Shown: positions 3,273 to 58,362 of the stretch, piece after piece
Numbering within the stretch: the first letter of the stretch is position 1
How the letters are laid out: the number at the start of each line of letters is the position of its first letter
DNA from: an uncultured Clostridia bacterium
GTDB taxonomy: Bacteria > Bacillota > Clostridia > Christensenellales > UBA1242
Reading direction: 5' to 3'
Assembly (NCBI GenBank): GCA_944383275.1
Contig: CALWOV010000003.1
Span: 29,827-93,826 of the forward strand
Length of the DNA stretch: 64,000 bases
The notes under the pieces: model-generated
What the model was told of the DNA's origin: nothing
The model's database searches: none
Seen by the model: the letters and a program-made list of their open reading frames with translations, nothing else
Program-made: the position numbers and the translations under genes

Positions 3273-3273
3273 T

Positions 3274-28965: not shown

Positions 28966-28974
28966 AGTTTTCCC

Positions 28975-29793: not shown

Positions 29794-29826
29794 AATTTTT
29801 ACACCACACCTTAAAATATTTGTTTT

Positions 29827-30042: not shown

Positions 30043-30062
30043 ATTTTAATTTAATATGTTAG

Positions 30063-30866: not shown

Positions 30867-31071
30867 AGCCTACACCTCCTTATTTAATTTAAAATTTACT
30901 TTTTATATTTTTATAAATAACACTTAAAAATTAAAATTTATTAAAACTTCTTTATTTTTATTTAACAAAATTAATATATTGATGATTTTAATCTGCTATT
31001 AAACTTTATAAAAGTAATAATAAAAATTTTTAAACATAAATAAAACAGATAAAAAATTACTAAAAGCAATT

Positions 31072-31884: not shown

Positions 31885-31957
31885 ATAAGCACCTCCATTT
31901 ATATAATAATTTTTATCATTTATTTGATTAATTAAAAATTTAACATAGTTTTGAGAA

Positions 31958-33529: not shown

Positions 33530-33532
33530 ATT

Positions 33533-35032: not shown

Positions 35033-35598
35033 TAGAACCACCTCCTTGGTGGCATTTTTACTCCACTTTTTTTGCGTTGTGCCACAAGCATACTTTGAGC
35101 AAACTTTGTGTCCCAAGCACTTGCATCAGAAAACAAACCTTTATAAAGGAAATATCTTGCAACAACGCCGTTAGCAAATGCATAGTCATCTATTTTATAA
35201 GACACATCTATTGTGTCTGTTAACTCTTCAATAAGCGCAGGAGCATAAGTGTATGTGATGATATAATTACCATTTGAACATTCAATAAAAGTTGGAAAAG
35301 TGTTATATTTTTGTTTTATTCCATTATTGTTTTTCACAGAAATTAGTTCTATTAAATTTTTTGATAAATCGGAAAAATTAAATTTATTATTAGAAATTGT
35401 TATATTTTCAGTTGTTTTCAATGGAATATACATAAAGGCTATTAAATGATTTACATCATTAATACAACTTATTATTTGATTTATTTGTGCTTGCTGGTCT
35501 TCTGTTGAAGTTGAAGTTCCACCAAGTTCTGTTATTTGCAAAAGGTTGTTTAAGTTTAAATGCTTGCACACTAGTTTTACTATATCTTTAACAATCAT
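35032..35598 (-). CDS. Candidate head-tail adaptor / connector protein
   Basis: 188 aa; lies after the capsid genes; N-terminus (IVKDIVKLVCKHLNL) resembles gp6-type connector starts; start at 35598 preceded by AAGGAGA. Confidence 0.4.
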   Translation of the reverse strand: MIVKDIVKLVCKHLNLNNLLQITELGGTSTSTEDQQAQINQIISCINDVNHLIAFMYIPLKTTENITISNNKFNFSDLSKNLIELISVKNNNGIKQKYNTFPTFIECSNGNYIITYTYAPALIEELTDTIDVSYKIDDYAFANGVVARYFLYKGLFSDASAWDTKFAQSMLVAQRKKSGVKMPPRRWF

Positions 35599-35609
35599 TT
35601 CTTCTCCTT

Positions 35610-35987
35610 TTAAACCCATCTATCTTTATAGGCATCATTAAAATTTACATCATTATTTTTCTTGTTTGCATAGTCATACATTTCTTTAAGTTTCCACCTT
35701 GCTTCATCATTTTGTACTCGTTTAATCTCTTGTTCTAGTTTTTCATTATGAATTTCCATTTCTTTTATTAATTTATCAGCATTTTCTCTTCTGGTTTTTC
35801 TAACATACGGAACCAGCCTTGCGTCAATTTTATTAAATGGAACAACCAAGCAAAAAGTTTGTTTTTGCCCTGAATTATGCACTTCATATCTTTGTTTATT
35901 TGTGTTATATACAATAAAATAGTTATTATCTATTGCTTTTAGTCTTGATAAAATATCAAAAACATCTGTTGTTATATTTACTAACAT
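35610..35987 (-). CDS. Hypothetical phage-like protein
   Basis: 125-aa ORF between the capsid and adaptor genes. Confidence 0.4.
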   Translation of the reverse strand: MLVNITTDVFDILSRLKAIDNNYFIVYNTNKQRYEVHNSGQKQTFCLVVPFNKIDARLVPYVRKTRRENADKLIKEMEIHNEKLEQEIKRVQNDEARWKLKEMYDYANKKNNDVNFNDAYKDRWV

Positions 35988-36002
35988 ATTACTTCCCTTT
36001 TA

Positions 36003-36031
36003 CAAATCAAGGGTGAGCAAAAGCCCACCCC
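36003..36031 (-). terminator. Terminator/attenuator-like hairpin after the capsid genes
   Basis: On the minus strand, GGGTGGGC-TTTT-GCTCACCC followed by TTGATTTGT, directly after the stop at 36040. Confidence 0.45.
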
Positions 36032-36039
36032 TGATAAAA

Positions 36040-37206
36040 TTAAGATGCAGTTATTGAAAGTTTGCCTTGTCCACCTGTTTTATCACAAATAAGTTCAGCA
36101 TATTTTACCAATGTTGCAGTGTGAATTGGGTATCCTTCTTTTTGTTTCAAAATTCTGCCGTTATCAGAACTTAACCATTCCCAATCACAAAGTTGATGAA
36201 TTTTAAAATCTTTACTGTTTAAAAAGTAAACTTCACCATCTTTAGCGAAACGGTCGGCAACAAAAGGAATACCATTGAATGATATGGTTTTATATCCACC
36301 CTCAAGATTTAAAATGTCAACATTTAATTTATTTGCTGAAAGTTTTTCTTGGTATAATCTTCTTGCATCAAGTGCACCCATTATGAAGTCTATTTCTGAA
36401 CCTTTTTGTTCAGACAATGTGTCTAGAACTTCCATAAAAGATGCTTCTGTAAAATTCGCTTTTGTAACAGATGCACTGTAAGGTTTTAAAAATGGATAAG
36501 TAGTAACCGAGTTACCATAAAGTGTTGCACCTTCAAAAATCGACTTTAAGCCTGTAATTTCTTTATCTTTACTTCCCTGCACATATAAAGATACAGTTTT
36601 TTGAGTGTTTGCCATATCTTCTGTTGCAGCATCACTTAAAGTTATTGTTTTTGTGCCGAAATCACAATTAAGAATTCTTGTTGTATGTGAATAAACGCCA
36701 TCTACATAAATATCAACCATCATTCCTATCATTAAATTTTTAATACTGTCAACTGTGAATGTATAAACATCTTTTGCTGAAGAATTTCCAGACGCTAAAA
36801 GCCCTGTTCCATCTCCGTAAAGCATTCTACTCATATTAAATTTGCTCGCTTCTATCATTCCTTCCATTTCGGCTGTAAGCAAATTTACAAAAGCACCAGC
36901 CTCTGACGAAGATGCACGCAAAGCCTTGTCTGAAAGTTCTATTGTTCCATAAAGGTTTTTTAGCGTAGAGGTTAGCAACAAGTAATTATTAAAGCCACTT
37001 AAAGGCAAAGCACCCACTTCTGTTCCTGCACCAATTCCACCATTAACACCATATGGAACTAATTTTTTTATCGCTTTTCCAACAACATCTTGGCTTGTTT
37101 TTTCAAGTTTTGACAAAAATGGGTGTGTTTTTGTGTTAAGTTGATTTGCTACAATACCAAGATACATAGTTTTAAGCGCTTCATTTGCTGTTTGTAATGT
37201 AACCAT
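36040..37206 (-). CDS. Major capsid protein paralog 2 (presumed HK97-fold)
   Basis: 388 aa, immediately after the scaffold and paralog 1. Shares N- and C-terminal blocks with paralog 1 (LKNLYGTIE, AGAFVNLLTAEMEG, SRMLYGDG, HQLCDWEW, LKQKEGY, TLVKYAEL). Confidence 0.65.
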   Translation of the reverse strand: MVTLQTANEALKTMYLGIVANQLNTKTHPFLSKLEKTSQDVVGKAIKKLVPYGVNGGIGAGTEVGALPLSGFNNYLLLTSTLKNLYGTIELSDKALRASSSEAGAFVNLLTAEMEGMIEASKFNMSRMLYGDGTGLLASGNSSAKDVYTFTVDSIKNLMIGMMVDIYVDGVYSHTTRILNCDFGTKTITLSDAATEDMANTQKTVSLYVQGSKDKEITGLKSIFEGATLYGNSVTTYPFLKPYSASVTKANFTEASFMEVLDTLSEQKGSEIDFIMGALDARRLYQEKLSANKLNVDILNLEGGYKTISFNGIPFVADRFAKDGEVYFLNSKDFKIHQLCDWEWLSSDNGRILKQKEGYPIHTATLVKYAELICDKTGGQGKLSITAS

Positions 37207-37224
37207 AAATTCCCCCTTTAAATT

Positions 37225-38403
37225 TTAAGATAAATTAGTAAGTTTAGCTTGTCCTGCTGGTTTTGAACACATAAGTTCGGCATATTTTACCAAGGTTGCA
37301 ATAAAACTTGCATAGCCTTCTTTTTGTTTTAAAACAGAACCATCTTCATTGCAAAGCCATTCCCAATCGCAAAGTTGATGCATTGCAAAATCATTTGTGT
37401 TTAATAGATACATTGTTCCAGATGGAATAAATTTATCACTTATCATAGGAATTCCATTGAAACTTAAAGTTCTATAGCCACCTTGTAAATTCAATGGTTC
37501 TAAGTTTGCTCGTTTTTCCATTAAAAGTGATGCGAATTTGCGTTTTAATGCACTTGTTGTTGCAATAAAGTTTATTTCATTGCCCGTGCGTTCAAGCACT
37601 GTATCTATTGCAGTTTGAATGTATATATCGTTAAATGTATCACTTGTGGTTTTAGATTTTGTATAAGCGTTTATCCAAGGATAAGATGTTCTATTTACAC
37701 CGTAAATTGAACCTGTAGTTTCGAATATTTTTTCGATACCTGTTAATTCTTGGTCTTTACTGTTTTGCATATAAACTTTGTAACTAGATGCCGATGTTGC
37801 AAATTCGGTTGTAACAACAGTTGATAAAGTTATTTTTTTACTTGCTCTATCAATGCTTGCAATTCGAACTCCACAAAAACCAGAAACTTTAGAAGTGCCA
37901 TTATAAAAATCGATAACCATACCTTCTAAAAGTTTGCTAACATCGTCAACTGTAATTTCATTTTTTGATACATTTGCAGAAGATACAGAGCAAAGACAAC
38001 CACTGCCATCACCATATAACATTCTGCTTAAATTAAACTTACTTGCTTCAAGCAAACCTTCCATTTCGGCTGTAAGCAAGTTTACAAAAGCACCAGCATC
38101 ATCTATTGATGCACGCATTGCTTTATCTGAAATCTCTATTGTTCCATAAAGATTTTTTAGTGTTGATGTAAACAACATATATTTATTTTCTGCACTTTTA
38201 GGTAGAATACCACCTTCATCACCAGCGCCAACACCACCATTAACACCATATGGCGCAAGTTTTTGAATTTCTCTGCCATAAACATCAGAAGTTGTTTGTT
38301 TTATCTGGTTATAAAGTGCATTTGTGTTTGTGTTTAACTGATTACTTACAACGCCAAGATATACATCTTTTAAAGCGTTTTCAGCAGTTTGCATTGTTAC
38401 CAT
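37225..38403 (-). CDS. Major capsid protein paralog 1 (presumed HK97-fold)
   Basis: 392 aa, directly downstream of the scaffold gene; size and position typical of an MCP; conserved blocks shared with paralog 2. Confidence 0.65.
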   Translation of the reverse strand: MVTMQTAENALKDVYLGVVSNQLNTNTNALYNQIKQTTSDVYGREIQKLAPYGVNGGVGAGDEGGILPKSAENKYMLFTSTLKNLYGTIEISDKAMRASIDDAGAFVNLLTAEMEGLLEASKFNLSRMLYGDGSGCLCSVSSANVSKNEITVDDVSKLLEGMVIDFYNGTSKVSGFCGVRIASIDRASKKITLSTVVTTEFATSASSYKVYMQNSKDQELTGIEKIFETTGSIYGVNRTSYPWINAYTKSKTTSDTFNDIYIQTAIDTVLERTGNEINFIATTSALKRKFASLLMEKRANLEPLNLQGGYRTLSFNGIPMISDKFIPSGTMYLLNTNDFAMHQLCDWEWLCNEDGSVLKQKEGYASFIATLVKYAELMCSKPAGQAKLTNLS

Positions 38404-38414
38404 ATATAAAACTC

Positions 38415-39137
38415 CTATTTACTAAAGATTTTTTTTGCCAGTTCTTTTGCTTCTTCAAGTGTAGTTGCTGATTTGATTTGATTTTCAAAATTAACTCCAT
38501 TATTTGAATTTATAAAAGTTGGCACATTAGGTTTTGTGCTGTTAACTTGTTTTAAATAATCTTTTATAACAGCATCACGAACTTTGTTGTTTTTTAACAC
38601 TTGATTAAAATTAGTTTCACTTTCCAAATAATTCTGGTTATTAACAAGTTGCTGTTCTAGAAATTTTAACCAAGCATTATGCAAGGGGTTTTGACTTTCT
38701 GCAATAACCTTATCTTGCAAAATTAGATTAGAGAGTTCTTTTGCATATTCTTTTGCGCGTGGATTTTCTTGCAAGAAATTTTCTACATAACCTTTCCATT
38801 CCTTTTTATCAAATAAATTATTTGTAGATGCCCCTTGCATTTCTTCTTGTTTTTGTAAACTAGACAAAAGTTGACTTTTGCGAGTGAACTCTTTTTCTAA
38901 ATTTTCATAAGCATTTTTTAAAGATTCAACATCTTTAAATTTTCCTAATGGAGAACCATCGGGTAATGGTTGCTCTCCTGTTTTTTCTTTTATATTGCTA
39001 TTATTTAGTGCATTTTCTATGTTTTTTAAAGAATTTTTATCTTGTTCTATGATATTTGGTTTTAAATTTATATTTTTAATATTTAAGTTATTTTCATTTT
39101 GTAAACTTAAATTTGGTGTATTTTCAACAATTTCCAT
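38415..39137 (-). CDS. Candidate scaffolding protein
   Basis: 240 aa, acidic, helical and low-complexity; lies between portal and capsid. Confidence 0.5.
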   Translation of the reverse strand: MEIVENTPNLSLQNENNLNIKNINLKPNIIEQDKNSLKNIENALNNSNIKEKTGEQPLPDGSPLGKFKDVESLKNAYENLEKEFTRKSQLLSSLQKQEEMQGASTNNLFDKKEWKGYVENFLQENPRAKEYAKELSNLILQDKVIAESQNPLHNAWLKFLEQQLVNNQNYLESETNFNQVLKNNKVRDAVIKDYLKQVNSTKPNVPTFINSNNGVNFENQIKSATTLEEAKELAKKIFSK

Positions 39138-39148
39138 AAAAAATTCTC

Positions 39149-41038
39149 CTAATTTTCAAAAACTTTATTTGCTTCTTGTTCTAGTTTTTTAAACTGTTTA
39201 TGTTCCCTTATATGTTTCAAAAGCATATCTTTTAATTCGGCATTTTCTTTACACGCTTTTTCGAAATCTCCACTTAACATAAAATTTATGTGTTCATTAA
39301 TATGTAAATCGTGATTATGAATTTCTAAAACTTCACATTCCTTTTTATTTAAAAACTCAATATTTTCGCGCTTTGCTTTCTGAATTTGTAAAGTGTTTTG
39401 GTCAAGAGCATCTTCCCACATTCCAAACCCAAGCATTTCCAATGTCTTGCTTCTTAATGAATTAGACATCTTTCCGTTCTCATCTAAAAGCAATCCGGAA
39501 TTTAAAAGTTCAAAAACCATATTTCTTTTTTGAGCCACAGTTTGACCAAGTTCAGATTCTGTTTCAAAAGCAATTTCATCTGACGATATATTTCCCCTGT
39601 CCCAATAAAAGAACTCGCTTGCACCGTTTTGCCCAACCACTCGCCCCATTCGATTAGTTGTTGCAAATTGTTTATATAATCTTAATATTTGTTGGGCAAC
39701 CATTTTTAAAGCAAAACAAATATATTCTCCACTTGCAGAAATTCTAGCCTCTTCTTGTTCAATTAAAATTTGCAATGCAACTCCACTCATACTACTTATA
39801 TTTGTTGAACCACCAAGCAAATCACTAACCCCACTTACAGTTATAAATTCACTTTCAAGTCTTTGCTCTTCTTCGGTAAAGTTTGCAGGAACAGAATCCG
39901 TTGCTAATATTTTAGGAGTATTTGAACCTTGTCTGTAAACCAAAACTTTTCCAGGACTTAACCCCTCTTCCTCCAACTCATCAATATCTATAGAGCCATC
40001 TTCTACGGTTAAAATTCCCATAGACAGCCGGTTAATAAATTCGTGTTTCCTATTTTTTATTGCGTTATAAGCGCGTTGAACAGGTATCATTCTTTCTATA
40101 ACACTTCCCCCCCAAAACAAAGATGGTTGTTCAATAGAAATTTGTCGCACAAAAGGAAAACCTCGTTCCCCATATTTTAAATTTTTATAAGGTAATTCAC
40201 CATCGAACACAAGTTTATCACCAGCAACAATAACCAATCTTCCATTTGGGAATTTTTTACTAGGTTCTTCATATCTTTCTATAACCATAGCAGAATCTTT
40301 TTGTTTAGTTTTTTGAAATTTTGAAATATATAATTGATTATCAACAAAGCCATCTGCCTGGACGCTTGACAAAGTGTAGATATCTAAATCTTCGCCTTCA
40401 AGTTTTATACCCCAAACTTTTTCTATTGTATCTACCGAAAAGGGTTTTGCGTGTATTATACTTTTACAATAATTTATATCTGCACTTCCGTTACTGTCTG
40501 GATATATTTCAAATGGAGAACAAACCATAACATCTACATCACCTTCATAGATTCGTTCACCATATGGCGTTATTCCAACAACAGAACCCGAACTGTTATT
40601 CCAAACTATTTTATAAAATGCCGTTCCACAAATTTCACTCCATCTAGTTGCTTGAGAAATTAATTTACTCATATCAAGTTTATTAGATATTGATTGCAAA
40701 ATATTTTTACTAACTTTTGCATTACTTAAATCATCTTCATCAGAACTTGCTGGAAGAACTGTCATGGTTGGTCTTACTTTTGCAAGTTTTGCAATTCTAC
40801 TTTCTAATATTGGTGCTATATGATTGTAAACTTGTTTTTCTTCCCAAAAATATTTTTTATCAATTTCGTTTTGTATTTGACTTTGTGTTACTTCACAATA
40901 CTGATTTCCTAAAACAAAATTTAAGTTTAATTGCCATTGTGTTTCAAAAGGTTTTCGTGCTTCATGCCTTTTTTTAAAATCATTCCAAACATCTTCAACT
41001 AACTCTTTTTCATAATCTTTTTTATTTGTGTTTTTCAT
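39149..41038 (-). CDS. Phage portal protein
   Basis: 629 aa; N-terminal pattern RKPFETQWQLNLNFVLGNQY is typical of portals; lies after the terminase. Confidence 0.8.
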   Translation of the reverse strand: MKNTNKKDYEKELVEDVWNDFKKRHEARKPFETQWQLNLNFVLGNQYCEVTQSQIQNEIDKKYFWEEKQVYNHIAPILESRIAKLAKVRPTMTVLPASSDEDDLSNAKVSKNILQSISNKLDMSKLISQATRWSEICGTAFYKIVWNNSSGSVVGITPYGERIYEGDVDVMVCSPFEIYPDSNGSADINYCKSIIHAKPFSVDTIEKVWGIKLEGEDLDIYTLSSVQADGFVDNQLYISKFQKTKQKDSAMVIERYEEPSKKFPNGRLVIVAGDKLVFDGELPYKNLKYGERGFPFVRQISIEQPSLFWGGSVIERMIPVQRAYNAIKNRKHEFINRLSMGILTVEDGSIDIDELEEEGLSPGKVLVYRQGSNTPKILATDSVPANFTEEEQRLESEFITVSGVSDLLGGSTNISSMSGVALQILIEQEEARISASGEYICFALKMVAQQILRLYKQFATTNRMGRVVGQNGASEFFYWDRGNISSDEIAFETESELGQTVAQKRNMVFELLNSGLLLDENGKMSNSLRSKTLEMLGFGMWEDALDQNTLQIQKAKRENIEFLNKKECEVLEIHNHDLHINEHINFMLSGDFEKACKENAELKDMLLKHIREHKQFKKLEQEANKVFEN

Positions 41039-41176
41039 ATTTATCTCCTTAAATTTTTTAATATTAAAACAGCAAAATATGCTGATTGTTTTTAATAAAT
41101 TGATTAAATTTTATTATTTTTAATGCTTTTTATTGTTTTATTATAAATTTTTATCTTTAATTATGATATTTGATAT

Positions 41177-41467
41177 TTACTTTAAAAGCTTTAAAAGTCG
41201 TTGTTTTTCGTTTTCCAATTCTTCATCTGTATAATTTTTATAATCTTTATTTTTATCCCAGAACAGTTCAAGCAATGCTCGTGCTGCTGGTATATCTGGT
41301 GGTATATGTTTTTTTGTAACTTTTCTTTTAGTTAATGTAAGATTATCCTCATCTGTTTTTGCATATTCTTCAACAATTTCATCAACCGAATATCCCATTG
41401 CTTTTTTTAATAATGCTTTAGTTAATTCTTTATTTTCTTTATCATCTTTCAACTTATCATTACTCAT
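41177..41467 (-). CDS. Small DNA-packaging accessory protein (possible small terminase-like)
   Basis: 96 aa, charged, with an HTH-like segment (KAMGYSVDEIVEEY) and an IPPDIPAARALLEL motif; overlaps the TerL stop; unusually downstream of TerL. Confidence 0.35.
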   Translation of the reverse strand: MSNDKLKDDKENKELTKALLKKAMGYSVDEIVEEYAKTDEDNLTLTKRKVTKKHIPPDIPAARALLELFWDKNKDYKNYTDEELENEKQRLLKLLK

Positions 41468-42938
41468 AGTCTTCTCCGTTGAACAACTTTTCTATTTTGT
41501 TTTTTAATCTTAGTCTATATCTATTTTGTTTGGAAATTAATTTATCTTTATGTTTTTGTATGCTTGTTTTTATGGTTGCAATTTTAGGAACTTCAGGTCT
41601 TGACATAACATAATATCTTAATTCATCTAAAGCGTGGTCATCTTTTTTTATTGGAGCATCATCGTTACCCCACCAATATGCTTTAATTTCTCTTATTAAG
41701 TTTACACAATTTTTAAAAATGAAAAGTTTTGTTACGCCATCGCTAGAACGCAATAAACTTTTCACTCTTGATATTCCTGAAAACAAATCTTTATTAACAT
41801 TGGTATTCACATTAATTCCATATTCATAAAACAACTCTGCCACACTTTTACTGCTTGCTAAAGTTTTTTGGTTTGCGGCAGAATCTATTAACGCCGAGAT
41901 TTTTCCATTAAAAGTTTTCCATTTAAGTTTTTTACAAATTTCTTTTATACAAATTGAATGTTCTTCAACCGTTTTGTTTGAAGCATAATGTTCGGCAATT
42001 ACATAAATATTTCCATCATAATCAACAGCATACCAATGCGCACTTAATGGGTTATGAAGGCCTGGGTCGATTGAAATATTATCATACCAATCAATAGGAA
42101 CTTCGAATGGTTCTATAACGTGAATTGCTGGGTCAAACTCGTTATAAACCATTCCACCATGCCCAACAAATTTTCCATACCTTCTACTATCCAACTCATC
42201 TTCAGACAATAACCTTGACATCTCTTCAATTTCATTTTTATCAAGATAAGGGTTATCTGCCCATTCCATATTTATCGTCCAAATTTGTGGGTCTTGTTTT
42301 TTGTTTAAATATATTTCTTCATAAACCCAAGTTAAGCCTTTAAGTGGTGTCATCGTTCCAAATATTTCACCTTTTCTATCTAGAACACGCATTTTACATT
42401 CAAGATAAATATCATAGGGTGGTTCTTCGTCAAACCAAACAAAATCTAAACTTGTTCCTTGAAATTTTTCTCTACCTTGGTCGCAACTTTTAAATGCTAT
42501 TTTACTTAAACTTCCAAAAACATTTCTTATTAATATATAGTCAATTACACCATTTTCTGGGTCATCTTTTCTTCCTGACAACATAATTATTTCGACTATC
42601 CAATCGGGATTTAAAAAGGATAAAATTTTCTGTTGAGCAACATCTCGTTGAACCTGTGTGCTAAGCGATACTACCCAGCAACTTATTGGTTTGTTTTTTC
42701 TAAACGGGTGATTTCCTCTTGCAAGCCAAACGGTTTCTGCTGCACCGCACTGACTTTTACCACTTCGGTTTCCACCAAATACCCACCTATTTTTTGATAA
42801 GCATTTATGAAATTCGATTTGCTTTAAATGAATTTTATCACCAGTGTTATAGTTTTTCATTCGGTCATTATTGATTCTGCGTTGCTGTTCATTTTCAATT
42901 TTTTTTATTTCTAAAACTATGTTGTTTAAGTCATACAT
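41460..42938 (-). CDS. terL: Phage terminase large subunit
   Basis: Walker A GGNRSGKS, Walker B LDFVWFDEEP, C-terminal RNaseH-like nuclease region (SIDPG ... DDHALDELRY); RBS AAGGAGAA. Confidence 0.9.
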   Translation of the reverse strand: MYDLNNIVLEIKKIENEQQRRINNDRMKNYNTGDKIHLKQIEFHKCLSKNRWVFGGNRSGKSQCGAAETVWLARGNHPFRKNKPISCWVVSLSTQVQRDVAQQKILSFLNPDWIVEIIMLSGRKDDPENGVIDYILIRNVFGSLSKIAFKSCDQGREKFQGTSLDFVWFDEEPPYDIYLECKMRVLDRKGEIFGTMTPLKGLTWVYEEIYLNKKQDPQIWTINMEWADNPYLDKNEIEEMSRLLSEDELDSRRYGKFVGHGGMVYNEFDPAIHVIEPFEVPIDWYDNISIDPGLHNPLSAHWYAVDYDGNIYVIAEHYASNKTVEEHSICIKEICKKLKWKTFNGKISALIDSAANQKTLASSKSVAELFYEYGINVNTNVNKDLFSGISRVKSLLRSSDGVTKLFIFKNCVNLIREIKAYWWGNDDAPIKKDDHALDELRYYVMSRPEVPKIATIKTSIQKHKDKLISKQNRYRLRLKNKIEKLFNGEDYE

Positions 42939-43020
42939 TTTATTCTCCTTAAAGAATTATCAACAAAAAACTTATTTAATTTATATTTTTTCTTCAAATT
43001 AGGTTTAATTTTGCAATAAA

Positions 43021-43056
43021 AAACAATAATTGCACATGAAAGCACAATTATTGTTT
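43021..43056. promoter_or_regulatory. 12-bp-stem inverted repeat between terL and the divergent gene
   Basis: AAACAATAATTG-N12-CAATTATTGTTT. On the minus strand it is followed by TTTATTGC (terminator-like), about 85-120 nt upstream of the terL start. Confidence 0.4.
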
Positions 43057-43905
43057 GATAAAATTAAACAAGGTGATATTATGATAAAAGTTTTAGTTTT
43101 TGTTTTATTTTTATTATTTTGTATGCCAACACAATATGGCGTGGTGAATGCTGAAGAATTATATACCCCTTCTTATTATAGAATTGAAAGTTCTAACTGT
43201 TTATTATATCGCACAGAACAAGATAATCAAGATATTTCAAATGTTTGGTTTTTATTACCCAAAACATATTTTGTTCAAGTTCTAGATGAAAGTGATGAAC
43301 TGTTTTTTAAAGTTAAGTATCAAGATTTTATAGGTTATGTTTTTAAAACAGATGTTTCAGCTGTTTATGAAACGCCACAATATCCTTGGGCTGATAATTT
43401 AACTTTTGATATAAATGGAACAGCAAATGTTGTTATTCGTTCAGCACCGTCAAGTGATAGTGCATATTTAGGGCTAATTCCATTTAATGCAACAAGTGTT
43501 ACTTATCACGGAAGCATTGTTGGAGATGAAGCACTAAGTGGGCTTGGCAATTCTTGGTATTTTGCGACTTACACAAGTTTTGAACAAGGAATTATAAGTG
43601 GTTATGTTTATGCGCCTTTAACTCAAAATTTAACAGTAATTCAAGATAATACTGAAGTTCTTAGCACAGTAAAGCCATCTAGTGGAAGTGAAATCATTGA
43701 TGAAGTTATTTCGCCAGAACTGCAAAATGGTCAAAATTTATTGATTATTGGTTTATTAAGTTTAGTTGGAATTGCTATTTTACTTTTACTGTTTAGACCA
43801 AAACGCAAATCAAAAAAAGCAAAGCAAAGCGTTAAAGGAACACAACTAAATCAATCAAATAACAATAAACAATTTTTAACATTTGATGAAAGTGATAATT
43901 TTTGA
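43030..43905 (+). CDS. Secreted, C-terminally membrane-anchored protein with two SH3b-like domains
   Basis: Probable start at 43081 (MIKVLVFVLF signal peptide). Two SH3b-like segments, a C-terminal TM helix and a basic tail (RPKRKSKKAK). Confidence 0.5.
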   Translation: MHMKAQLLFDKIKQGDIMIKVLVFVLFLLFCMPTQYGVVNAEELYTPSYYRIESSNCLLYRTEQDNQDISNVWFLLPKTYFVQVLDESDELFFKVKYQDFIGYVFKTDVSAVYETPQYPWADNLTFDINGTANVVIRSAPSSDSAYLGLIPFNATSVTYHGSIVGDEALSGLGNSWYFATYTSFEQGIISGYVYAPLTQNLTVIQDNTEVLSTVKPSSGSEIIDEVISPELQNGQNLLIIGLLSLVGIAILLLLFRPKRKSKKAKQSVKGTQLNQSNNNKQFLTFDESDNF

Positions 43906-44460
43906 TTACTTGTCAAAATAAACTGATTGTAAAATTGGATTTTTAAATTTAATTTTTTGAATATTGGTTTCAATTTTCAAATTATGATATTTACTTGAAA
44001 GTTTGCTTACATTATCATTATACATTCCAATAAGCCAACTTTCTTTTGCAAACATTTTTTCTAAAACATTATAAGAATAACCATTTTTAATAAAAAAATC
44101 TACAGCCATATCAAGCCCTTTATTAATTCTTCGCTGTAAAGTTCTTCGGCTTAAATTAAAAATTTTTGCAATATCTACCTGCGAATAGCAATCTATAAAA
44201 AACAAAACCAATAGTTTTGAAAATTCTGGGTCAATAAAATTTAAGCAATCATCTACTAGCGATTTTATTAACAACAAATTCTTTTTTCTTTCAATTAAAT
44301 TGATAATGGTTTCAGTTAATTCCAAAGTATCATCATAGCCATATGTATGCAAATGAGACATTATACTTTGCTCGTTAACCCTGTTATCTATTGCCTTATT
44401 TACCATATTAACAATGTTATAAGATTGTAAAATAGTTTTTAACCACAATCTTCCTTTCAT
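43906..44460 (-). CDS. Sigma-70 region-4 / ArpU-like transcriptional regulator
   Basis: 184 aa. The segment LLVLFFIDCYSQVDIAKIFNLSRRTLQRRINKGLDMAVDFF resembles the region-4 HTH of small phage late regulators and group-5 sigma factors. Confidence 0.5.
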   Translation of the reverse strand: MKGRLWLKTILQSYNIVNMVNKAIDNRVNEQSIMSHLHTYGYDDTLELTETIINLIERKKNLLLIKSLVDDCLNFIDPEFSKLLVLFFIDCYSQVDIAKIFNLSRRTLQRRINKGLDMAVDFFIKNGYSYNVLEKMFAKESWLIGMYNDNVSKLSSKYHNLKIETNIQKIKFKNPILQSVYFDK

Positions 44461-44624
44461 TTTACTCCCCCTTTTTTGTAAAAAAATAAATCACATTATA
44501 AAAAATCGCACAAAGGCATTACATTTCTGCATATTACTATATCAATTCGACATTTGTCAATACTCCTGCGCTATATTTTTGTAAAATATTTTACAAAATT
44601 AATTAATTTTTTGTTCAATTTTTT

Positions 44625-44647
44625 AGAACATATGTTCGATTATAGCA
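44625..44647 (-). promoter_or_regulatory. LexA (Cheo) box next to an extended -10 promoter facing the regulator gene
   Basis: AGAACATATGTTCG (44625-44638) matches 13 of 14 positions of CGAACATATGTTCG. On the minus strand it is directly preceded by TGCTATAAT (44639-44647). Confidence 0.6.
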
Positions 44648-44862
44648 TATCAAATATGACATCTAGCGTCAAATTTAATTTAAAGAGATAAAATTTTAAA
44701 AACTTTTTTATTTGAATTTTTAAATTATAATTTTAAGAGAAATTTTTAAATATTAACCTAAAATTTATCAATAAATTTTAAGTAAAAATTTTGTCCAAAA
44801 TATTATTAATATGTTTGAAAAAAACGAAAATTCTGCTATAATATATAATTAGAGGTAAACTT

Positions 44863-46773
44863 ATGAAAAAATCAAACATATTTTTCTTCAGTTTGTTGGC
44901 AATTCTTTTACTTCCCTTTACGCTTTTTGCAAATAATAATCAACAAGGTTCAGTTTCTGCTGCACCAAGTTTTTCTATTACTGTTACCGATATTGCAAGC
45001 ACAGAAACACCACCTTCTGTTGACACAATAAATTATCAAGATATAGAATTTGCATATGATACAATTTATGTAACAGATAAAATAACCAACTCAAAAATTT
45101 TTACTTATTCTGTTAATAATGATTATGCAAAACAGGAAATTTCCGTTTTTAGTAGTGATGAAAACTTTTTTCCTGTTAAGATTGCTTTAAACCTTAATGA
45201 ACAATCTTTATATTACACTTCTTTAAGTAATGTAGGAATTTATAAAACAGACACTGAAGGACATTACAATTTAAAAACATTTTTAGAGCCTTCGTTAGAA
45301 AATTCTAGTTTTATTCAGGTTGACATAACAAATGTTTATGACTTAGATTGTTCTGATGATGGTTCAATTTTTGCTATTGCAAGAAGTTTTAATGGTCAAG
45401 ATATTTTGGTTTACAAAACTAAAACAGATACTTTCTTTAACTTAATATGCTTTATTCAAGATTTACCTTCACCATATAACGAATTAGTTTTTAATGATAA
45501 CAGCCATATAGAAGTAAGTTCTGATAAAAGTTTCATAACAATTTCAGTAAACAACACCATTTTTACCCTTAATATGAATGGCGAAATTATTGAAAATAAA
45601 TTTAGTTTACCAGAAAGTTTAGACTTAATTTGCGATATTGAATTTGATTGGCAAAACAATCTTGTTATATTAACAAAAGGAACTTATAATAAAATTATTC
45701 TAGCAACTGAAACAGAATATTCCGTTTTTGATGATTTAAACAATTTATTATCTAAAATTAATGCTTTTTGTCTTGATAATGAAAATGGAATTATGTATGC
45801 TTGTAACTACTATACTGTTTTGAAAATTACCATTAACAATGAAGTATCAAACTTTTTTTCAACTATTTCAAAGCAAATTAAACCAGATTTAAGAAACTAT
45901 ACGCTTACCGATGTTTGTCAAATACTTAATGTTAATGATGATACTTTGGTTTATGAAAATGAAAGTTTACATATGTTAAACTGCAAACCTGCTTCTAGTT
46001 TAATTTTAATTGAAGATAACCCTAATTCACTATATTATTACGTATTAATTAACGATTATGAAATTTTTGATAATAACATAATATTAAGTCAACAAATTCG
46101 AACTTTAGCACCAGAAAAAATTGAACTTAACACTGGTTATGTTCTTAAAACTGAAGTTACTTTTGCAGAAAAACAAGAACCAGACCAAGAATTAACACAA
46201 GTTAGAACTATTTTTCCTAATACCCCTGTTTACAGATTTCCAACCACAAAAGAAGATGGAAATGGTGAAATAATTGTTACTGTTATAGAAAGAAGCACGC
46301 AAAACCCTAACCCTATTCTTCCAATTTTGGCAACTGCAGAAATTCCACTTGATGATAATAATGTTGATTTTTATGCTATTCAATATGGTTCAATTATTGG
46401 ATACATAGACAAAAACAGCGTGATTGCATCAGACAATGTTCCACTTGAATTTAAGTTTTATCCAACAGGAAAAATTACTGAAGATACAAATATATATGCC
46501 GACTCTGGACTTATTAATTTTACAACTGAAATAACAAAGGATAAAGAAGTTCAAGTGGTTGAAGAACAAAATGGTGTTGCAAAAATTTATTGGCTTGAAC
46601 AAGGTGTTTTGTTCGTTGGTTTTGTTAATATGAATTATATTGATGATGGCAACCTTACAACAGCCCAAGTGGTTGGCATAAGTTTAATGGCTGGTGCTGT
46701 TGCTATTGCAATAATTATACTTTGCGTTGAATGTTATAGAAGAAAACGCAAGAAGAAAAAAGAAAATGTTTAA
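44863..46773 (+). CDS. Secreted repeat/beta-rich protein with C-terminal 2x SH3b-like domains and membrane anchor
   Basis: Signal peptide (MKKSNIFFFSLLAILLLPF), 636 aa, C-terminal TM helix and a RRKRKKKKE tail; the C-terminal architecture matches the 43081-43905 protein. Confidence 0.5.
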   Translation: MKKSNIFFFSLLAILLLPFTLFANNNQQGSVSAAPSFSITVTDIASTETPPSVDTINYQDIEFAYDTIYVTDKITNSKIFTYSVNNDYAKQEISVFSSDENFFPVKIALNLNEQSLYYTSLSNVGIYKTDTEGHYNLKTFLEPSLENSSFIQVDITNVYDLDCSDDGSIFAIARSFNGQDILVYKTKTDTFFNLICFIQDLPSPYNELVFNDNSHIEVSSDKSFITISVNNTIFTLNMNGEIIENKFSLPESLDLICDIEFDWQNNLVILTKGTYNKIILATETEYSVFDDLNNLLSKINAFCLDNENGIMYACNYYTVLKITINNEVSNFFSTISKQIKPDLRNYTLTDVCQILNVNDDTLVYENESLHMLNCKPASSLILIEDNPNSLYYYVLINDYEIFDNNIILSQQIRTLAPEKIELNTGYVLKTEVTFAEKQEPDQELTQVRTIFPNTPVYRFPTTKEDGNGEIIVTVIERSTQNPNPILPILATAEIPLDDNNVDFYAIQYGSIIGYIDKNSVIASDNVPLEFKFYPTGKITEDTNIYADSGLINFTTEITKDKEVQVVEEQNGVAKIYWLEQGVLFVGFVNMNYIDDGNLTTAQVVGISLMAGAVAIAIIILCVECYRRKRKKKKENV

Positions 46774-46790
46774 TTTAATATTTGACAACT

Positions 46791-46835
46791 AAAAAAGAAC
46801 GTTATCAATTTTGATAACCTTCTTTTTTGTTTATT
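46791..46835. terminator. Bidirectional rho-independent terminator
   Basis: AGAACGTTATCAA-TT-TTGATAACCTTCT hairpin with one mismatch, flanked by A6 upstream and T6 downstream. Confidence 0.7.
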
Positions 46836-46880
46836 TTTATAATTTAACAAATTAAATTTTTAATAATATATTGTTTAATG

Positions 46881-46943
46881 TGCTAAAAATTTAAAATTAA
46901 AATTTCTACGACACATAAAGTTTTATGACACATAAAGTTTTAT
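46881..46943. repeat. Conserved ~40-nt motif plus perfect 17-bp tandem duplication
   Basis: TGCTAAAAATTTAAAATTAAAATTTCTACGACACATAAAG recurs at 62910-62946; GACACATAAAGTTTTAT is repeated twice in tandem (46910-46943). Confidence 0.6.
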
Positions 46944-47000
46944 TTATATTGAAAAAGTCAATCATTATTATAACAACTTATTTATTTTTATTAAATAATT

Positions 47001-47726
47001 TTATATTTCATAAGAACTAAAATTGTGGTGCAATGGCATTTCTATATCATAATGGTCAACGCCTTTATCTAGAACACGGTCAACATTGTTTTCGGTTGAA
47101 ACTTTACCAACAGATACTTCGAATGCTGTTCTTGTTTCAATATCGTTTTCATTAATTCTTTTTTGATATTGACGACTTTGAATTCTACCTGTTAAATATA
47201 TTTTTTCACCAACAGAAAGTTCACTTACAAATTTTGCATTACGCCCCCAAGCAATGCAAGGGAGATAATCTGATTTATTGTAGGCACGATTTACTGCAAG
47301 CAAAACATCACAAATTTCACGCTTGAATGGTGTTGTTCTAAAAATTGGTTCTTTACAAACATAACCAACTAATTCAATTATATTTGAATTAAGATTAGGA
47401 ATTGGTTCGCAAATTTCTCGAACAAAAACAGTAAGCATAAGTTTACTTTTCCCATCTACCATTTTATTGTAACTTCTAAACTGCCCTTTTACTGCTATTT
47501 GTGTTCCTATTGCCATATTTTTTTCTGCAAACAATCTTTCTGACACAGTTATTGGAATTATATCGCATTGTTCAGAAAGTCTTGGCACTTCTAGATTTAT
47601 ATCATAAAATCCTTCCCCATAAATTTCGTGGCTGAAAACTGGTTCACACACAATTTTCCCACATAAATAAACTCTGTTGTTTGTTGATAATTCAAAATTC
47701 ATAAAAAATTTTCCCCCGTTTTTCAT
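47001..47726 (-). CDS. SSB-like protein with two OB-fold domains
   Basis: Two segments with the SSB pattern (NRVYLCGKIV.EP...; NIIELVGYVCKEPIFR...LAVNR...CIAWGRNAKFV...GEKIYLTGRIQSRQY). Probable start at 47702 (MNFELST). Confidence 0.55.
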   Translation of the reverse strand: MKNGGKFFMNFELSTNNRVYLCGKIVCEPVFSHEIYGEGFYDINLEVPRLSEQCDIIPITVSERLFAEKNMAIGTQIAVKGQFRSYNKMVDGKSKLMLTVFVREICEPIPNLNSNIIELVGYVCKEPIFRTTPFKREICDVLLAVNRAYNKSDYLPCIAWGRNAKFVSELSVGEKIYLTGRIQSRQYQKRINENDIETRTAFEVSVGKVSTENNVDRVLDKGVDHYDIEMPLHHNFSSYEI

Positions 47727-48487
47727 TTCTTTTTCTGCACGCCTGCTCGGTCTATTTCGTAATTATCGTGCAATACAAGGTTTCCCACATTGGTAACTTT
47801 ATAACCCTGCATTTTTAATCTTTCTAAAATTACAGGCAATGCTTCTAATATATGATCTGAGTTATTATGAAACAAAATAATGGAACCTGATTTAACTTTA
47901 CTCATAACTCGATTTGTTATTTCCGTTGCACTGATTCCTTTCCAATCAAGAGAATCTACATCCCACTGAATTGTTTGCATACCCAAACTTTCGGCAGTAT
48001 CTATAAGAGTGTTATTGTAACTTCCAAAAGGTGCACGGAATAAAGAAATTTCTGTTGGAACAATATTGTTAACTAGTTCTATACATTTAGATAATTCCAA
48101 CTCCATTTGATTTTGCGTCAGTTTAACCATATCTGGATGAGTGTTGCTGTGATTGCCAATTTCCATACCTGCATCAGCAATCGCTTTTACCATTTCTGGA
48201 TATTTTTCTACCCAAAAGCCCACCAAAAAGAAAGTTGCTTTTGTGTCATATTCTTTTAGAATATCTAAAATCCCTTGTGTTTTATCTGCGCCCCAAGCCG
48301 CGTCAAACGAAATAGCCACAGTTTTTTCTTCTATTTCAACTGAATATATTGGCACTTTTCTTAGATTATCTCCGAAAAAAACAGAAGCCGCCACATTTTC
48401 ACCCAAAGGTATTGCCAGCAGCGCGCACGCCAGCAATAATCCTGCGCTGAAAAGTAACACTGATTTTTTTAACACAATAAACTTCAT
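47723..48487 (-). CDS. Polysaccharide deacetylase (NodB family, PdaB-like)
   Basis: N-terminal TM/signal segment; NodB motifs (SFDAAWG, HSNTHPDM, LFRAPFG). Confidence 0.8.
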   Translation of the reverse strand: MKFIVLKKSVLLFSAGLLLACALLAIPLGENVAASVFFGDNLRKVPIYSVEIEEKTVAISFDAAWGADKTQGILDILKEYDTKATFFLVGFWVEKYPEMVKAIADAGMEIGNHSNTHPDMVKLTQNQMELELSKCIELVNNIVPTEISLFRAPFGSYNNTLIDTAESLGMQTIQWDVDSLDWKGISATEITNRVMSKVKSGSIILFHNNSDHILEALPVILERLKMQGYKVTNVGNLVLHDNYEIDRAGVQKKK

Positions 48488-56103: not shown

Positions 56104-56128
56104 AAAAGCAACAAAATTTGTTGCTTTT
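56104..56128. terminator. Bidirectional hairpin terminator between the repeat locus and ddl
   Basis: AAAAGCAACAAA/TTTGTTGCTTTT palindrome, T-rich on both strands. Confidence 0.55.
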
Positions 56129-56147: not shown

Positions 56148-56248
56148 TATATAATCGGAAGTTTTGTCTGCAAGTGCATATTGGCATTCGCAAGCAAAAC
56201 TGATATTTATTTACACTGTATTAAAATTTTACATCACAAAGTCTATAT
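56148..56248 (+). repeat. Mini-module D (101 bp) of the same family
   Basis: TATAT-AATCGGAAGTTTTGTCTG, hairpin, CAAGCAAAACTGATATTTATTTACACTG ... ACATCACAAAGTCTATAT. Has the 5-prime, central and 3-prime boxes but lacks the second hairpin region. Confidence 0.7.
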
Positions 56249-56396
56249 TACAAAAAGTTTATATAAAATTTGGGTTTACTTTAACTTTACATAAATAGTA
56301 ACTAAATCAAATTTATGCCGATAAACATCAGTTTTAAAGTAATTTTTCAATTCGCTAAAAATTTTCATTTTAAAATTGTTACGGCGCAATTTATAT
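56249..56396 (+). repeat. Possible highly degenerate module
   Basis: Begins TACAAAAAGT (compare TAATCAAAAGT at 62577) and ends TTTATAT; contains AACATCAGTTTT, the reverse complement of the central box; otherwise unrecognisable. Confidence 0.25.
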
Positions 56397-56554
56397 TATC
56401 GGAAGTTTTGTCTGAATGCATACGAAGCAAAGCGAGTGTATATTCAAGCAAAACTGATGTTAATTCAAACAGTGTTGCCGTTGGAACAACGGGTTTGCGT
56501 TTAGCAAATTGGTTTGTGAACATCGTGAGCGAAACAACATCTCATAGTTTATAT
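56392..56554 (+). repeat. Non-coding module B, copy 2 (163 bp)
   Basis: Differs from 23828-23990 at 3 positions by hand alignment. Confidence 0.85.
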
Positions 56555-56701
56555 TATCGGAAGTCGAACCAAGCACAACTTTAGTTGTATTTGAGTGAGA
56601 CTGATGTTAATTCAAACTGTGATGACGGGCAAAGCACGCAAATTCGTTAGAATTTATTAAAATTTTATGTTTGTAAAATTTTAACATCACATAGTTTATA
56701 T
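56550..56701 (+). repeat. Non-coding module A, copy 2 (152 bp)
   Basis: Differs from 23681-23832 at 5 positions by hand alignment; its last base is the first base of the murF-like stop-codon triplet. Confidence 0.85.
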
Positions 56702-58362
56702 TAAGTATAATTATCTGGTAAATCATTTTCCCACAATATAATATCTTTAGCACAAACTATATCTTTTAAAATTGCCTGTGCTGTTTCAAAAGTTTCTGCC
56801 TCAAAAATATTGCTTTCACTAAAGCCACCTTCAATTAAGCCTTCTCTTATGGCTAGATAGTGAGTTTTGTTAACAATTACAACTAAATCTGCAACTTTTG
56901 CTATATCTTTACCAAAATTAAAGTTTGCAAGTCTTTCTAAATTTCCAAGTTCAACAAGCCCCGGTGTTATTACAATTTTTCGTCTATCTTTAAACATAGA
57001 TAAAACTTCCAAAGCACGCTTACTGCCTTCTATACTTGCGTTATAAGCATCGTCAAGCACCAAAACATCGTTTTCAGATTTTATAAGTTGTAATCTATGG
57101 TCAACAGGAGATATCTTTTCTATACCCTGTTTAATTTGGTCTAATGTTAAGCCAAGTTTTATACATAAAGGAATGCACAACAAAATATTTACTATATTAT
57201 GTTTACCTAAAACTTTTGTATAACATTCAAGAACATCTTTCCCTATATGAAGTTTAAATTTAGTTCCTTCTGTTGTAGTTTCAACATCACTTGCATAAAC
57301 ATCGCAATCTTTATTATCTATTGATACAAATTTTTTATCACAAACACAACTTTGCGCAATCTTTTCGGCATATTTATTGTCTAAATTAAATACGCACATT
57401 CCATCGTCTGGTAAACTTTTTGGTAATTCAGACTTTGTTTTAACAACATTATCAATTGTGTGAAATGTTGCCATATGCTGTTCTCCAACAGGAGTAATTA
57501 TTGCATATTTGGGTTTAACTATATCACAAAGTTCTTCAATATCTCCAACCGTTCTTGCCCCCATTTCTGCAATAAATATTTGATGACTAAATTCTAGAAA
57601 CTGTATGATAGATTTAGTTACACCCATTGTCGTATTATAATTAAAAGGTGTGCTTAAAACATTATATTTTTCACTTAAAATAGTATCTAAAAAGTTTTTA
57701 ACACTTGTTTTACCATAACTTCCTGTAATTCCAATTTTTATTAAATCAGGATAATTTTGCATTTTCTTTTTTGCTTGATGCACATATTTTTGGTTTATTG
57801 CTTTTTCTAACGGTTTCATTACCCAATGAACAAATGGAACTGTTATTGGCACAATTAAAGGAGTTAAAGCAACAGCACCAAAACGCAAAATATCTATAAA
57901 CATTGAAGATAAAACAATAACCCCAAATGAAATTGCAAGATGCAAAATAAATAATAAAATCATACTTCTAGTCATTCGATTAGTCATTTTTAATGGAGTT
58001 TTTTTAGGGGCTGTATAGACATTTACTATAAAGAAAATAGAAAGTATAAAATAAATAATTAAGCCAAGATAAGCAAGATAATCAAGAAAAGCATTAAAAA
58101 TTGCGTTTGTAACAATAAGTGTTGCAACTGATATAAGCGAAAGCATTGCAAGTCTTAACACATATTTTGCTCTGGTGTTTTTAAGCCAATCAAAGTAGCC
58201 ACGATTATGATAACCGTTAAGTTGAATTATTTGCATAAATTTATAGCCTTCATAACATAGCAAAACTGCATTTATAACTGATAAAACTATGGCAATAATA
58301 AAATGTCCATTACTAAAATCAAAAAAATCTGTTGTCATTGCTCCTCCCAAAATTGCATACAT
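56701..58362 (-). CDS. murF: MurF-like Mur ligase with N-terminal polytopic membrane domain
   Basis: P-loop GITGSYGKTS at about aa 213, with Mur ligase central and C-terminal domains (DDAYNAS). The first ~200 aa form about 5 hydrophobic helices. Probable start at 58338 (GGGAGGAG RBS, ATGA overlap with the upstream stop). Confidence 0.7.
   Translation of the reverse strand: MYAILGGAMTTDFFDFSNGHFIIAIVLSVINAVLLCYEGYKFMQIIQLNGYHNRGYFDWLKNTRAKYVLRLAMLSLISVATLIVTNAIFNAFLDYLAYLGLIIYFILSIFFIVNVYTAPKKTPLKMTNRMTRSMILLFILHLAISFGVIVLSSMFIDILRFGAVALTPLIVPITVPFVHWVMKPLEKAINQKYVHQAKKKMQNYPDLIKIGITGSYGKTSVKNFLDTILSEKYNVLSTPFNYNTTMGVTKSIIQFLEFSHQIFIAEMGARTVGDIEELCDIVKPKYAIITPVGEQHMATFHTIDNVVKTKSELPKSLPDDGMCVFNLDNKYAEKIAQSCVCDKKFVSIDNKDCDVYASDVETTTEGTKFKLHIGKDVLECYTKVLGKHNIVNILLCIPLCIKLGLTLDQIKQGIEKISPVDHRLQLIKSENDVLVLDDAYNASIEGSKRALEVLSMFKDRRKIVITPGLVELGNLERLANFNFGKDIAKVADLVVIVNKTHYLAIREGLIEGGFSESNIFEAETFETAQAILKDIVCAKDIILWENDLPDNYT

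Follow-up and report, generated by a model that had tools for sequence, protein, structure and literature searches.

A stacked array of one structured, non-coding repeat with dif-like unit junctions between murF and ddl of an uncultured gut Clostridia bacterium

The DNA analysed here is a 64,000-nucleotide stretch (the window) of an uncultured Clostridia bacterium (GenBank assembly GCA_944383275.1, contig CALWOV010000003.1, positions 29,827 to 93,826), and the feature under study is an array of short, repeated modules at 56148-56701 of the window, between a murF-like gene and ddl. We propose that the array is a stack of copies of a single non-coding, non-autonomous repeat of about 150 bp that is moved site-specifically, probably by an Xer-type tyrosine recombinase; we rate this reading somewhat above an even chance. 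As judged from its sequence, the joint between two units, or that of an excised circle, appears to be dif-like, in that its XerC arm is a perfect Firmicute one, the centre is kept in the half next to this arm, and the second arm is degenerate.

The first-pass annotation had distinguished four modules, A, B, C and D, in this array and at 23681-24140. These are instead subfamilies or decayed copies of one repeat family with a unit of about 150 nt. Alignment of A, B, C and D gives one architecture, in which the 5' block TATATTATCGGAAGT is followed by the long, variable hairpin P1, the mid-block ACTGATGTTWATTCAAAC, a branched domain that is again variable, and the 3' block AACATCACATAGTTTATA. All modules have these three conserved blocks in common and fold alike, and the blocks exceed the expectation from shuffled sequences so far that chance is excluded. 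The unit is non-coding, and the 89-aa open reading frame (ORF) across one copy, B2, belongs to no protein family found in a check of coding potential. In order, it comprises TATATTATCGGAAGT, P1, ACTGATGTTWATTCAAAC, a four-way junction and CATCACATAGTTTATA; it starts with TATATTATCGGAAGT and ends in ...CATAGTTTATA(TTA), and adjacent units overlap by the core TATAT(TA).

Folding of 45 non-redundant copies nearly always gave P1 and then the four-way junction. The junction is closed by helix P2, in which AAACUGUGAUG pairs with CAUCACAUAGUUU, and bears the hairpins P3, P4 and P5. RNAalifold on the raw MAFFT alignment returned P1 alone; the structure was taken from the per-sequence folds and tested after model-based alignment. 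In that alignment 88.7% of the cells are paired, both sides change in 46 of the 50 pairs, and the covariation score is 0.431, against 0.142 for column shuffles and 0.05-0.08 for slid partners. Such an alignment, being fitted to the model, favours it; the independent single-sequence folds agree. P2 is a particularly clear case, in which GUGAUG/CAUCAC gives way to GGAAGU/ACUUCC, AUGUGU/ACACAU or GCGGUA/CGCCGC. Selection acts on the structure.

The written strand has 447 G-U pairs against 235 A-C mismatches, and most of the P1 and P4 tips read C-GAA-G, C-GCA-G, C-GGA-G, C-GTTA-G or C-GATA-G. This G-U excess, together with the loop tips, points to the written strand as the one that folds. Loops of the C-GNA-G type, and loops closed by G...A, are the classic DNA mini-hairpins of very high stability and differ from the GNRA loops of RNA. 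The loop types therefore hint that the unit may fold as single-stranded DNA.

A covariance model, R1, was built from 45 copies and used to score the units, which lie at three loci within 64 kb, beside the U32 peptidase gene (locus 1), murF (locus 2) and obg (locus 3). At locus 1, three plus-strand units follow one another: A1 (23681-23831, 77.1 bits), B1 (23828-23989, 138.6 bits) and C (23986-24140), an old decayed copy recognised by alignment and scoring only 11.9 bits. At locus 2, again on the plus strand, unit D (56148-56247) comes first. It is recognised by alignment and by R1 (61.7 bits, E = 8e-12), and in its roughly 100 nt the 5' block, P1, mid-block and P2 are kept and P3-P5 are lost. 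A decayed stretch without a significant R1 match (56248-56391) follows, in which an inverted mid-block fragment, AAAACTGATGTTTATC, is found on the minus strand at 56320-56335. The array is completed by the full-length unit B2 (56392-56553, 129.6 bits) and by A2 (56550-56703, 84.8 bits), which includes the terminal heptamer TATATTA (56697-56703). The third locus (62523-62957), between a yhbY-like gene and obg, holds two decayed plus-strand units, E (62573-62760; 32.8 bits and E = 2.6e-5 for 62573-62649) and the remnant F (62780-62957, start approximate), traced in the sequence and by alignment with L132-L135, contigs from other samples.

A repeat finder pairs 23681-23834 with 56550-56703 and 23826-24000 with 56390-56564, each at 97% identity. 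Exact counting reproduces the hand counts made at first reading, namely 5 substitutions in 147 nt for A (23681-23827 against 56550-56696) and 3 in 158 nt for B (23828-23985 against 56392-56549). Between the two loci, A and B are 97-98% identical. The observation that the order is swapped also stands: locus 1 reads A-B-(C) and locus 2 reads (D)-x-B-A, where D is a real short copy and x the decayed stretch. In contrast, the identity does not stop at the first base of the murF stop triplet, where module A was thought to end, but reaches 56703 and takes in the whole stop codon.

The mobile behaviour of the units emerges from conspecific strains, compared through contigs of other samples that encode exactly the same flanking proteins. 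Four differences consist of the presence or absence of a single unit with exact unit boundaries, and all four are at the ends of resident units, in head-to-tail orientation. Two of them are at locus 1, where L118 and L119 carry C, L116 and L117 carry B-C, and the window and L120 carry A-B-C; unit C occurs in every strain sampled. The site reads AAC-TATAT-AATAAG when empty and AAC-TATAT-[TATCGG...CATAGTT-TATAT]-AATAAG when filled, so that TATAT flanks the insert on both sides. In L117 (3781-4557, compared with window 23304-24262), a 38-bp deletion of unique flank is seen directly beside unit B. Flank haplotypes and unit content combine in a mosaic fashion at locus 1, an indication that recombination between strains contributes there.

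At locus 2 most strains agree with the window. In L132, which comes from a 585-kb scaffold, the murF stop abuts B and A is missing as a precise 147-nt block; by alignment, about 95 nt of the decayed stretch 56248-56391 are absent from this strain as well. At locus 3 (obg-yhbY), L132 carries an extra A-type unit at the end of the decayed unit, directly after the obg stop. This extra unit (L132:7485-7676) contains one N and an internal duplication of 40 nt, which are probably a scaffolding artefact inside the repeat. L133 has an 84-nt deletion at the third locus.

These presence/absence data support the view, already taken at first reading, of recent movement and independent insertion of modules as opposed to segmental duplication, and the polymorphism between murF and ddl that was to be sought in sister strains is there (L132 without A). 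On this reading, B was resident at both loci of this species before A arrived; at locus 1, A entered 5' of it, and at locus 2, 3' of it, beside the murF stop codon. Since A was inserted on opposite sides of B, both orders arise, and neither a segmental duplication nor the tandem or circular A-B-A intermediate once suggested is needed. A mis-joined repeat, the assembly error raised at the outset as a possible refutation, has next to no probability. Short-read assemblies of other samples do break within the arrays, as is expected of a true multi-copy repeat; the same junctions, with both sides, recur in at least 10 independent samples, the 585-kb scaffold spans locus 2, and the copies are told apart by specific substitutions.

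The junction of two units, read on the minus strand, is ACTTCCGATAA-TATAAA-CTATGTGATGT. As a query we used the B. subtilis dif site ACTTCCTAGAATATATATTATGTAAACT, which stands verbatim in a study where it served as seed (PMC3025954). Among the approximately 128,000 28-mers of the window, the three best matches to this site are the three unit junctions, with 21, 20 and 20 of 28 positions. The best is A1/B1 (ACTTCCGATAA-TATAAA-CTATGTGATAT, 23815-23842), followed by B2/A2 (ACTTCCGATAA-TATAAA-CTATGAGATGT, 56537-56564) and the junction of B1 with the decayed C (23973-24000), all on the minus strand and the latter two with 20 of 28. The 15 most conserved bases of the unit, TATATTATCGGAAGT, are the reverse complement of an XerC arm and the adjoining four centre bases, because predicted Firmicute dif sites, for example those of Macrococcus caseolyticus (ACTTCCGATAATATATATTATGTAAACT) and Desulforudis, begin exactly with ACTTCCGATAATA (PMC3025954 supplement). 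The first 15 bases of the junction, XerC arm and part of the centre, are thus an exact match, ACTTCCGATAATATA being the first 15 nt of the predicted Macrococcus and Desulforudis sites (PMC3025954 supplement). Over its full length the junction agrees with the predicted Macrococcus dif at 23 of 28 positions, a comparison made with another organism's site, the host's own dif not having been located. The XerC arm matches at 11/11 positions and the centre at 5/6; the second arm is variable and matches at 7/11 only. The dif site of B. cereus is ACTGCCTATAATATATATTATGTTAACT.

Copies that were found by the model independently of the search pattern still keep the block. A metagenome scan, in which the 15-mer of XerC arm and centre half was fixed and followed by a canonical XerD arm, returned at least 120 single-copy sites, ACTTCCGATAATATATATTATGTAAACT being the commonest. 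A second unit subfamily bears ACTTCCTAGA, the form that the arm has in B. subtilis. In addition, an internal segment of each unit, ACTGATGTTAATTCAAACTGTGATG, is an imperfect inverted copy of the junction. When a circularised unit is folded with DNA parameters, it forms one rod, in which P1 is followed by the junction, paired with the internal copy except for a mismatched centre, and then by P2 and P3-P5.

The ends of the main family have only TATA in common, with an imperfect subterminal similarity of 8/11 by hand comparison. A minority subfamily has true 10-bp inverted ends, TATCGGAAGT and ACTTCCGATA. Units of L044, L051, L062, L065, L033 and L079 form a subfamily with the 3' end ACTTCCGATAGTTTATA, in which 10-bp inverted ends produce a fully palindromic junction with an XerC arm on both sides. 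A further subfamily begins with TCTAGGAAGT, which equals the B. subtilis-type arm. On the reverse strand of L017 (approximately 3924-4010) lies a 47-bp mini palindrome, TTATCGGAAATTTTG...CAAAACTTCCGATAA, with two inverted XerC-arm-like ends; it adjoins a full unit, and its 3' end overlaps a promoter-like TTGACA-17-TATAAT.

The heptamer TATATTA both opens and closes the unit and is kept in full in about half of the array-final copies. After the terminal TATA, array-final flanks have T at +2 in 57 of 68 cases and A at +3 in 45 of 68. Read on the minus strand, as TAATATA, the heptamer opens with a stop codon, and the murF TAA (56701-56703, minus strand) is the first triplet of this reading. Similarly, the obg stop TAA (62953-62955) forms the first minus-strand triplet of the terminal heptamer of unit F, GATATTA (62949-62955). 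The overlap of stop and heptamer at murF and obg holds with or without the extra unit. Judging by such sequences, gene ends that read ..ATAA-TATA seem to be natural places for a unit to land; the pseudo-site at the murF end reads TTATACTTAATATAAA. The flanking TATAT is always the consensus of the element itself and never co-varies with the flank.

The family is widespread in gut Clostridia. A degenerate pattern search of a species-representative genome collection gave more than 105 stretches, nearly all of them from gut metagenome-assembled genomes (MAGs) of uncultured Clostridia, Christensenella and Christensenellales, from human, chicken, mouse, yak and roe deer hosts and often at contig ends. 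With R1 we counted 136 copies on 99 stretches from 35 MAG species of gut Clostridia/Christensenellales, and zero copies in 0.6 Mb of unrelated AT-rich metagenomic DNA. Pattern matches in one viral contig and in Poribacteria and Prolixibacteraceae were not confirmed by R1; one locus in Ignavibacteria gave a weak match (25 bits, E = 0.0018). A blastn search with A and B together found no match among plasmids and phages.

The copies are always intergenic, in either orientation relative to the neighbouring genes, and are unbiased with respect to GC skew (arrays 44:38, p = 0.58). Their positions differ between species; in L096, for example, the units adjoin the U32 peptidase gene on its opposite side. 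The nearest relative is in the same MAG for 65 of 100 units, and 20 units have a twin of at least 97% identity elsewhere in the same genome. Between species, units attain identities of about 90% where those of housekeeping genes are 65-75%. This sequence comparison points to either horizontal spread or strong constraint. No recurrent transposase was found among the 799 ORFs of the units' flanks (0.8 Mb), where recurrent genes were limited to an ABC ATPase, DegV, MetRS and similar, nor any transposase among the roughly 30 window ORFs scanned against Pfam. We found no earlier description of the repeat in the literature, and its conserved words matched unrelated primers only.

Other classes of structured or recombining sequence were also considered. 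Rfam gave no match at the gathering score and chance-level matches only at E up to 10, and ARAGORN found no tRNA or tmRNA. The core CUGAUGU differs from the CUGAUGA of hammerhead ribozymes, and no hammerhead model matched. As for integron attC sites, TTCAAAC and GTTTATA fit the AAC and GTT cores only, compared by eye with the RYYYAAC and GTTRRRY boxes. Promoter and terminator scans revealed no signals of the units' own, promoter-like sites being no commoner than in shuffles.

We propose that units would move singly, by conservative, orientation-specific and site-specific recombination. The enzyme would probably be the host's own Xer-type tyrosine recombinase, or one related to it, and its substrate the dif-like joint of an excised circle or folded strand. 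Units would insert at TATAT(TA) cores, with a preference for resident unit ends, where a half-site is already available. Observed are the repeat family, its fold, exact insertion boundaries, the strain polymorphism and the resemblance to dif; we infer the recombinase and the circular or folded single-stranded intermediate, and the units probably lack a cellular function.

Several observations weigh against the involvement of Xer. Units are present at numerous loci, the flanks of which have no more than about 7 nt of similarity left, and we know of no Xer-exploiting element that integrates anywhere but at the single chromosomal dif. Neither the fetched loci nor the metagenome scan yielded the dif of this clade; the canonical sites came from other organisms, and none was linked to units. 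The second arm covaries with the internal segment through P2, unlike the usual protein-binding arm, and conserved hairpins are needless for double-strand site-specific recombination. Part of the centre similarity is expected by chance at 30% G+C. We neither linked a recombinase gene to the units nor saw an excised circle. Finally, the strain polymorphisms could be deletions instead of insertions, and the mosaic flank haplotypes of locus 1 should be kept in mind here.

A more specific version of the Xer proposal seems possible to us but doubtful. The units might be gene-less, 150-bp 'mini-IMEXs', that is, miniature forms of the integrative mobile elements that exploit Xer (IMEXs), and thus selfish circles containing only a folded attachment site. 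In the rod into which the excised single strand or the circle would fold, the unit joint and the internal inverted copy would pair as an imperfect dif duplex, similarly to the attP(+) hairpin of CTX-phi, and host Xer would integrate it at pseudo-dif cores (TATATTA), among them stop-codon contexts (..ATAA-TATA) and the ends of resident units.

Alternatively, the repeat may be a classical non-autonomous transposon of the type of MITEs (miniature transposable elements with inverted repeats) or of bcr1, mobilised by a cut-and-paste transposase encoded elsewhere that duplicates the 5-bp AT-rich target TATAT, with the dif likeness a coincidence or a target preference. Its size, copy number, intergenic placement and strain polymorphism fit this explanation, as do the TATAT on both sides of a polymorphic insert, the 10-bp inverted ends of one subfamily and the precedent of bcr1, a repeat of about 155 bp with 5-bp direct repeats and stem-loops kept by compensatory changes (PMC3184786). 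However, the main family lacks terminal inverted repeats beyond TATA, and its flanking repeats never jointly deviate from the consensus, so that a true target duplication is not demonstrable. Moreover, the arrays are strictly head-to-tail with four of four polymorphic insertions at unit ends, the 0.8 Mb of flanks contain no recurrent transposase, and chance is unlikely to produce an exact match to dif over 15 nt. On balance we regard a transposon as unlikely. A related idea is that of a single-strand DNA element mobilised by an HUH enzyme, either the TnpA of IS200/IS605 or a REP-associated tyrosine transposase (RAYT). Such an element would insert 3' of TATAT, and since its right end recreates the target, arrays could grow at both ends. 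Orientation-specific insertion beside a fixed pentanucleotide that the element's end regenerates, the lack of inverted ends, the subterminal hairpins and the apical loops, mostly C-GNA-G and C-G(N)nA-G of the DNA mini-hairpin type and on one strand only, would all be explained. IS200/IS605 elements are strongly biased to one replication strand, however, and the arrays have no such bias relative to GC skew (44:38, p = 0.58); the left and right hairpins are mutually unlike, and tblastn with two TnpA/RAYT queries found no Y1 transposase in the 0.9 Mb of retrieved loci, a weak negative. This mechanism appears improbable.

The strong covariation in all seven helices, the G-U excess on the written strand (447 against 235 A-C), a conservation above that of the genome background and possible tandem G.A motifs raise the question of whether the units are structured small-RNA genes or RNA-level elements, their arrays having arisen by tandem duplication, unequal crossing-over and gene conversion without dedicated mobility; bcr1 is transcribed (PMC3184786). 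We give this explanation little credence. The units have neither promoter nor terminator, are randomly oriented to genes at unconserved positions, have loops that are not of the GNRA type and match nothing in Rfam even at E up to 10, and new loci together with single-unit gains at different loci require an insertion mechanism.

The window has about 30% G+C, and its minus strand carries most genes. The array sits between the MurF-like ligase gene (56701-58362, minus strand) and ddl, whose true start is the ATG at 56043, with GGAGG before it and, read by eye, a promoter-like TTAACA-18-TATAAA ahead of it. Between array and ddl, outside the repeat, lies a terminator-like hairpin (56104-56128) with folding energies of -17.7 kcal/mol on one strand and -18.7 kcal/mol on the other, and a T-run comes after it on each. 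A two-way terminator, as the first-pass annotation called it, is plausible from this predicted folding, although a simple consensus terminator scan did not call it. The same annotation placed the array inside a cell-wall operon. A murF 3' region is more likely than an operon interior, since the murF stop lies on one side, the terminator-like hairpin on the other, and ddl comes with a ribosome-binding site of its own and a plausible promoter. In that case the murF transcript may carry the A-B-x-D stack, in antisense orientation, as its 3' region.

At 553 aa, the MurF-like protein is long; for approximately the first 200 residues there is no Pfam match, and it scores 240 bits with TIGR01143, under the cut-off of 288.6. 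Elsewhere, the window contains a phage-like block at 28000-48000, with many ORFs without a family. It encodes a holin (30063-30866), a P22-like portal (39149-41038), a large terminase (41460-42938) and SSB (47001-47726), and the paralogous neighbours 36040-37206 and 37225-38403 in this block have a DNA identity of 72-75%. Just past the right end of the window, the conspecific scaffold L132 has 2.4 kb without a called gene (848-3275), in which R1 found no copy.

The family is of interest because bcr1-type repeats are without an identified mobilising enzyme and the Neisseria intergenic mosaic elements (NIMEs) have only a proposed one; the present repeat provides a specific candidate that can be tested. 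It inserts with site and orientation specificity, and within one gut species these insertions still vary. If Xer does move the units, a universal housekeeping recombinase would also drive miniature elements much as a transposase does, and an explanation would be needed for the pseudo-dif sites dispersed over a chromosome. If the units were mini-IMEXs, they would be the first family of MITE-like elements to be moved by the machinery that resolves chromosome dimers, and bcr1 and similar 'orphan' repeats might be explained likewise. On the practical side, the repeat breaks short-read assemblies of a widespread, uncultured group of gut Clostridia and supplies markers for strain typing.

Compared with known systems, the units are small, non-coding and dispersed like MITEs; the main family has no inverted ends, and no parent element was found among the flank and window ORFs. 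Units are not located at dif, as IMEXs would be, and do not have the strand bias of IS200/IS605. They resemble RUP, Correia and BOX elements in being small, structured, intergenic, multi-copy and non-autonomous, and BOX elements of pneumococci are themselves tandem arrays of repeat sequences (PMC3184786). In contrast to these three, the main family has no terminal inverted repeats, its arrays have a fixed orientation, its junction is dif-like and no matching insertion sequence was found.

The bcr1 repeats of the B. cereus group are about 155 bp long and non-coding, with many intergenic copies and a 5-bp AT-rich direct repeat, TTTAT; their positions vary by strain, two stem-loop domains are kept by compensatory changes, they have no known transposase, and a 'site-specific recombination-like' mode of movement has been suggested (PMC3184786, PMC6542083). 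The present units share the size, the intergenic copies, the 5-bp AT-rich repeat (here TATAT), the unconserved positions and the compensatory stem-loops. Compared by description, the two differ in host clade, in the head-to-tail arrays typical here and in the dif-like junction, which is not reported for bcr1. Copies of bcr1 occur on B. cereus-group plasmids, and as an indirect check of homology, blastn of a plasmid collection expected to include these gave no match.

NIMEs are intergenic arrays of 50-150-bp repeat sequence (RS) units separated by dRS3, a pseudo-palindromic putative recombinase site; unit number and order vary by strain, and as of the 2007 description such arrays had not been observed outside Neisseria (PMC1797815). 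Intergenic unit arrays, a short separator site and strain-variable number and order of units are found here as well. However, the RS units comprise more than 100 unrelated families without a conserved fold, whereas here all units belong to a single structured family, and dRS3 (ATTCCC-N8-GGGAAT) bears no likeness to dif, whereas the present separator mimics it.

IMEXs are gene-bearing elements of several to tens of kb. The gonococcal genomic island (GGI) measures 57 kb and EludIMEX-1 29.1 kb, and in the attachment sites of these two and of TLC-phi the XerC arm and the centre are conserved and the XerD arm diverges; the attP of CTX-phi is a folded single strand of about 150 nt, formed from two inverted dif-like sequences (PMC5357621). 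Like the attachment sites of CTX-phi, TLC-phi, VGJ-phi, GGI and EludIMEX-1, the unit junction is a 28-bp dif-like site in which the XerC arm is kept and the XerD arm is divergent, and, as in the CTX-phi attP, the predicted rod of the circularised unit would pair the junction with an internal inverted copy. Unlike IMEXs, which occupy the single chromosomal dif, the units are 150 bp long, gene-less and present at many loci. In its behaviour, the family is thus nearest to bcr1 and the NIME arrays, and in its sequence logic to the IMEX attachment sites. It is a small structured interspersed repeat whose distinguishing feature is the dif-like junction of its units.

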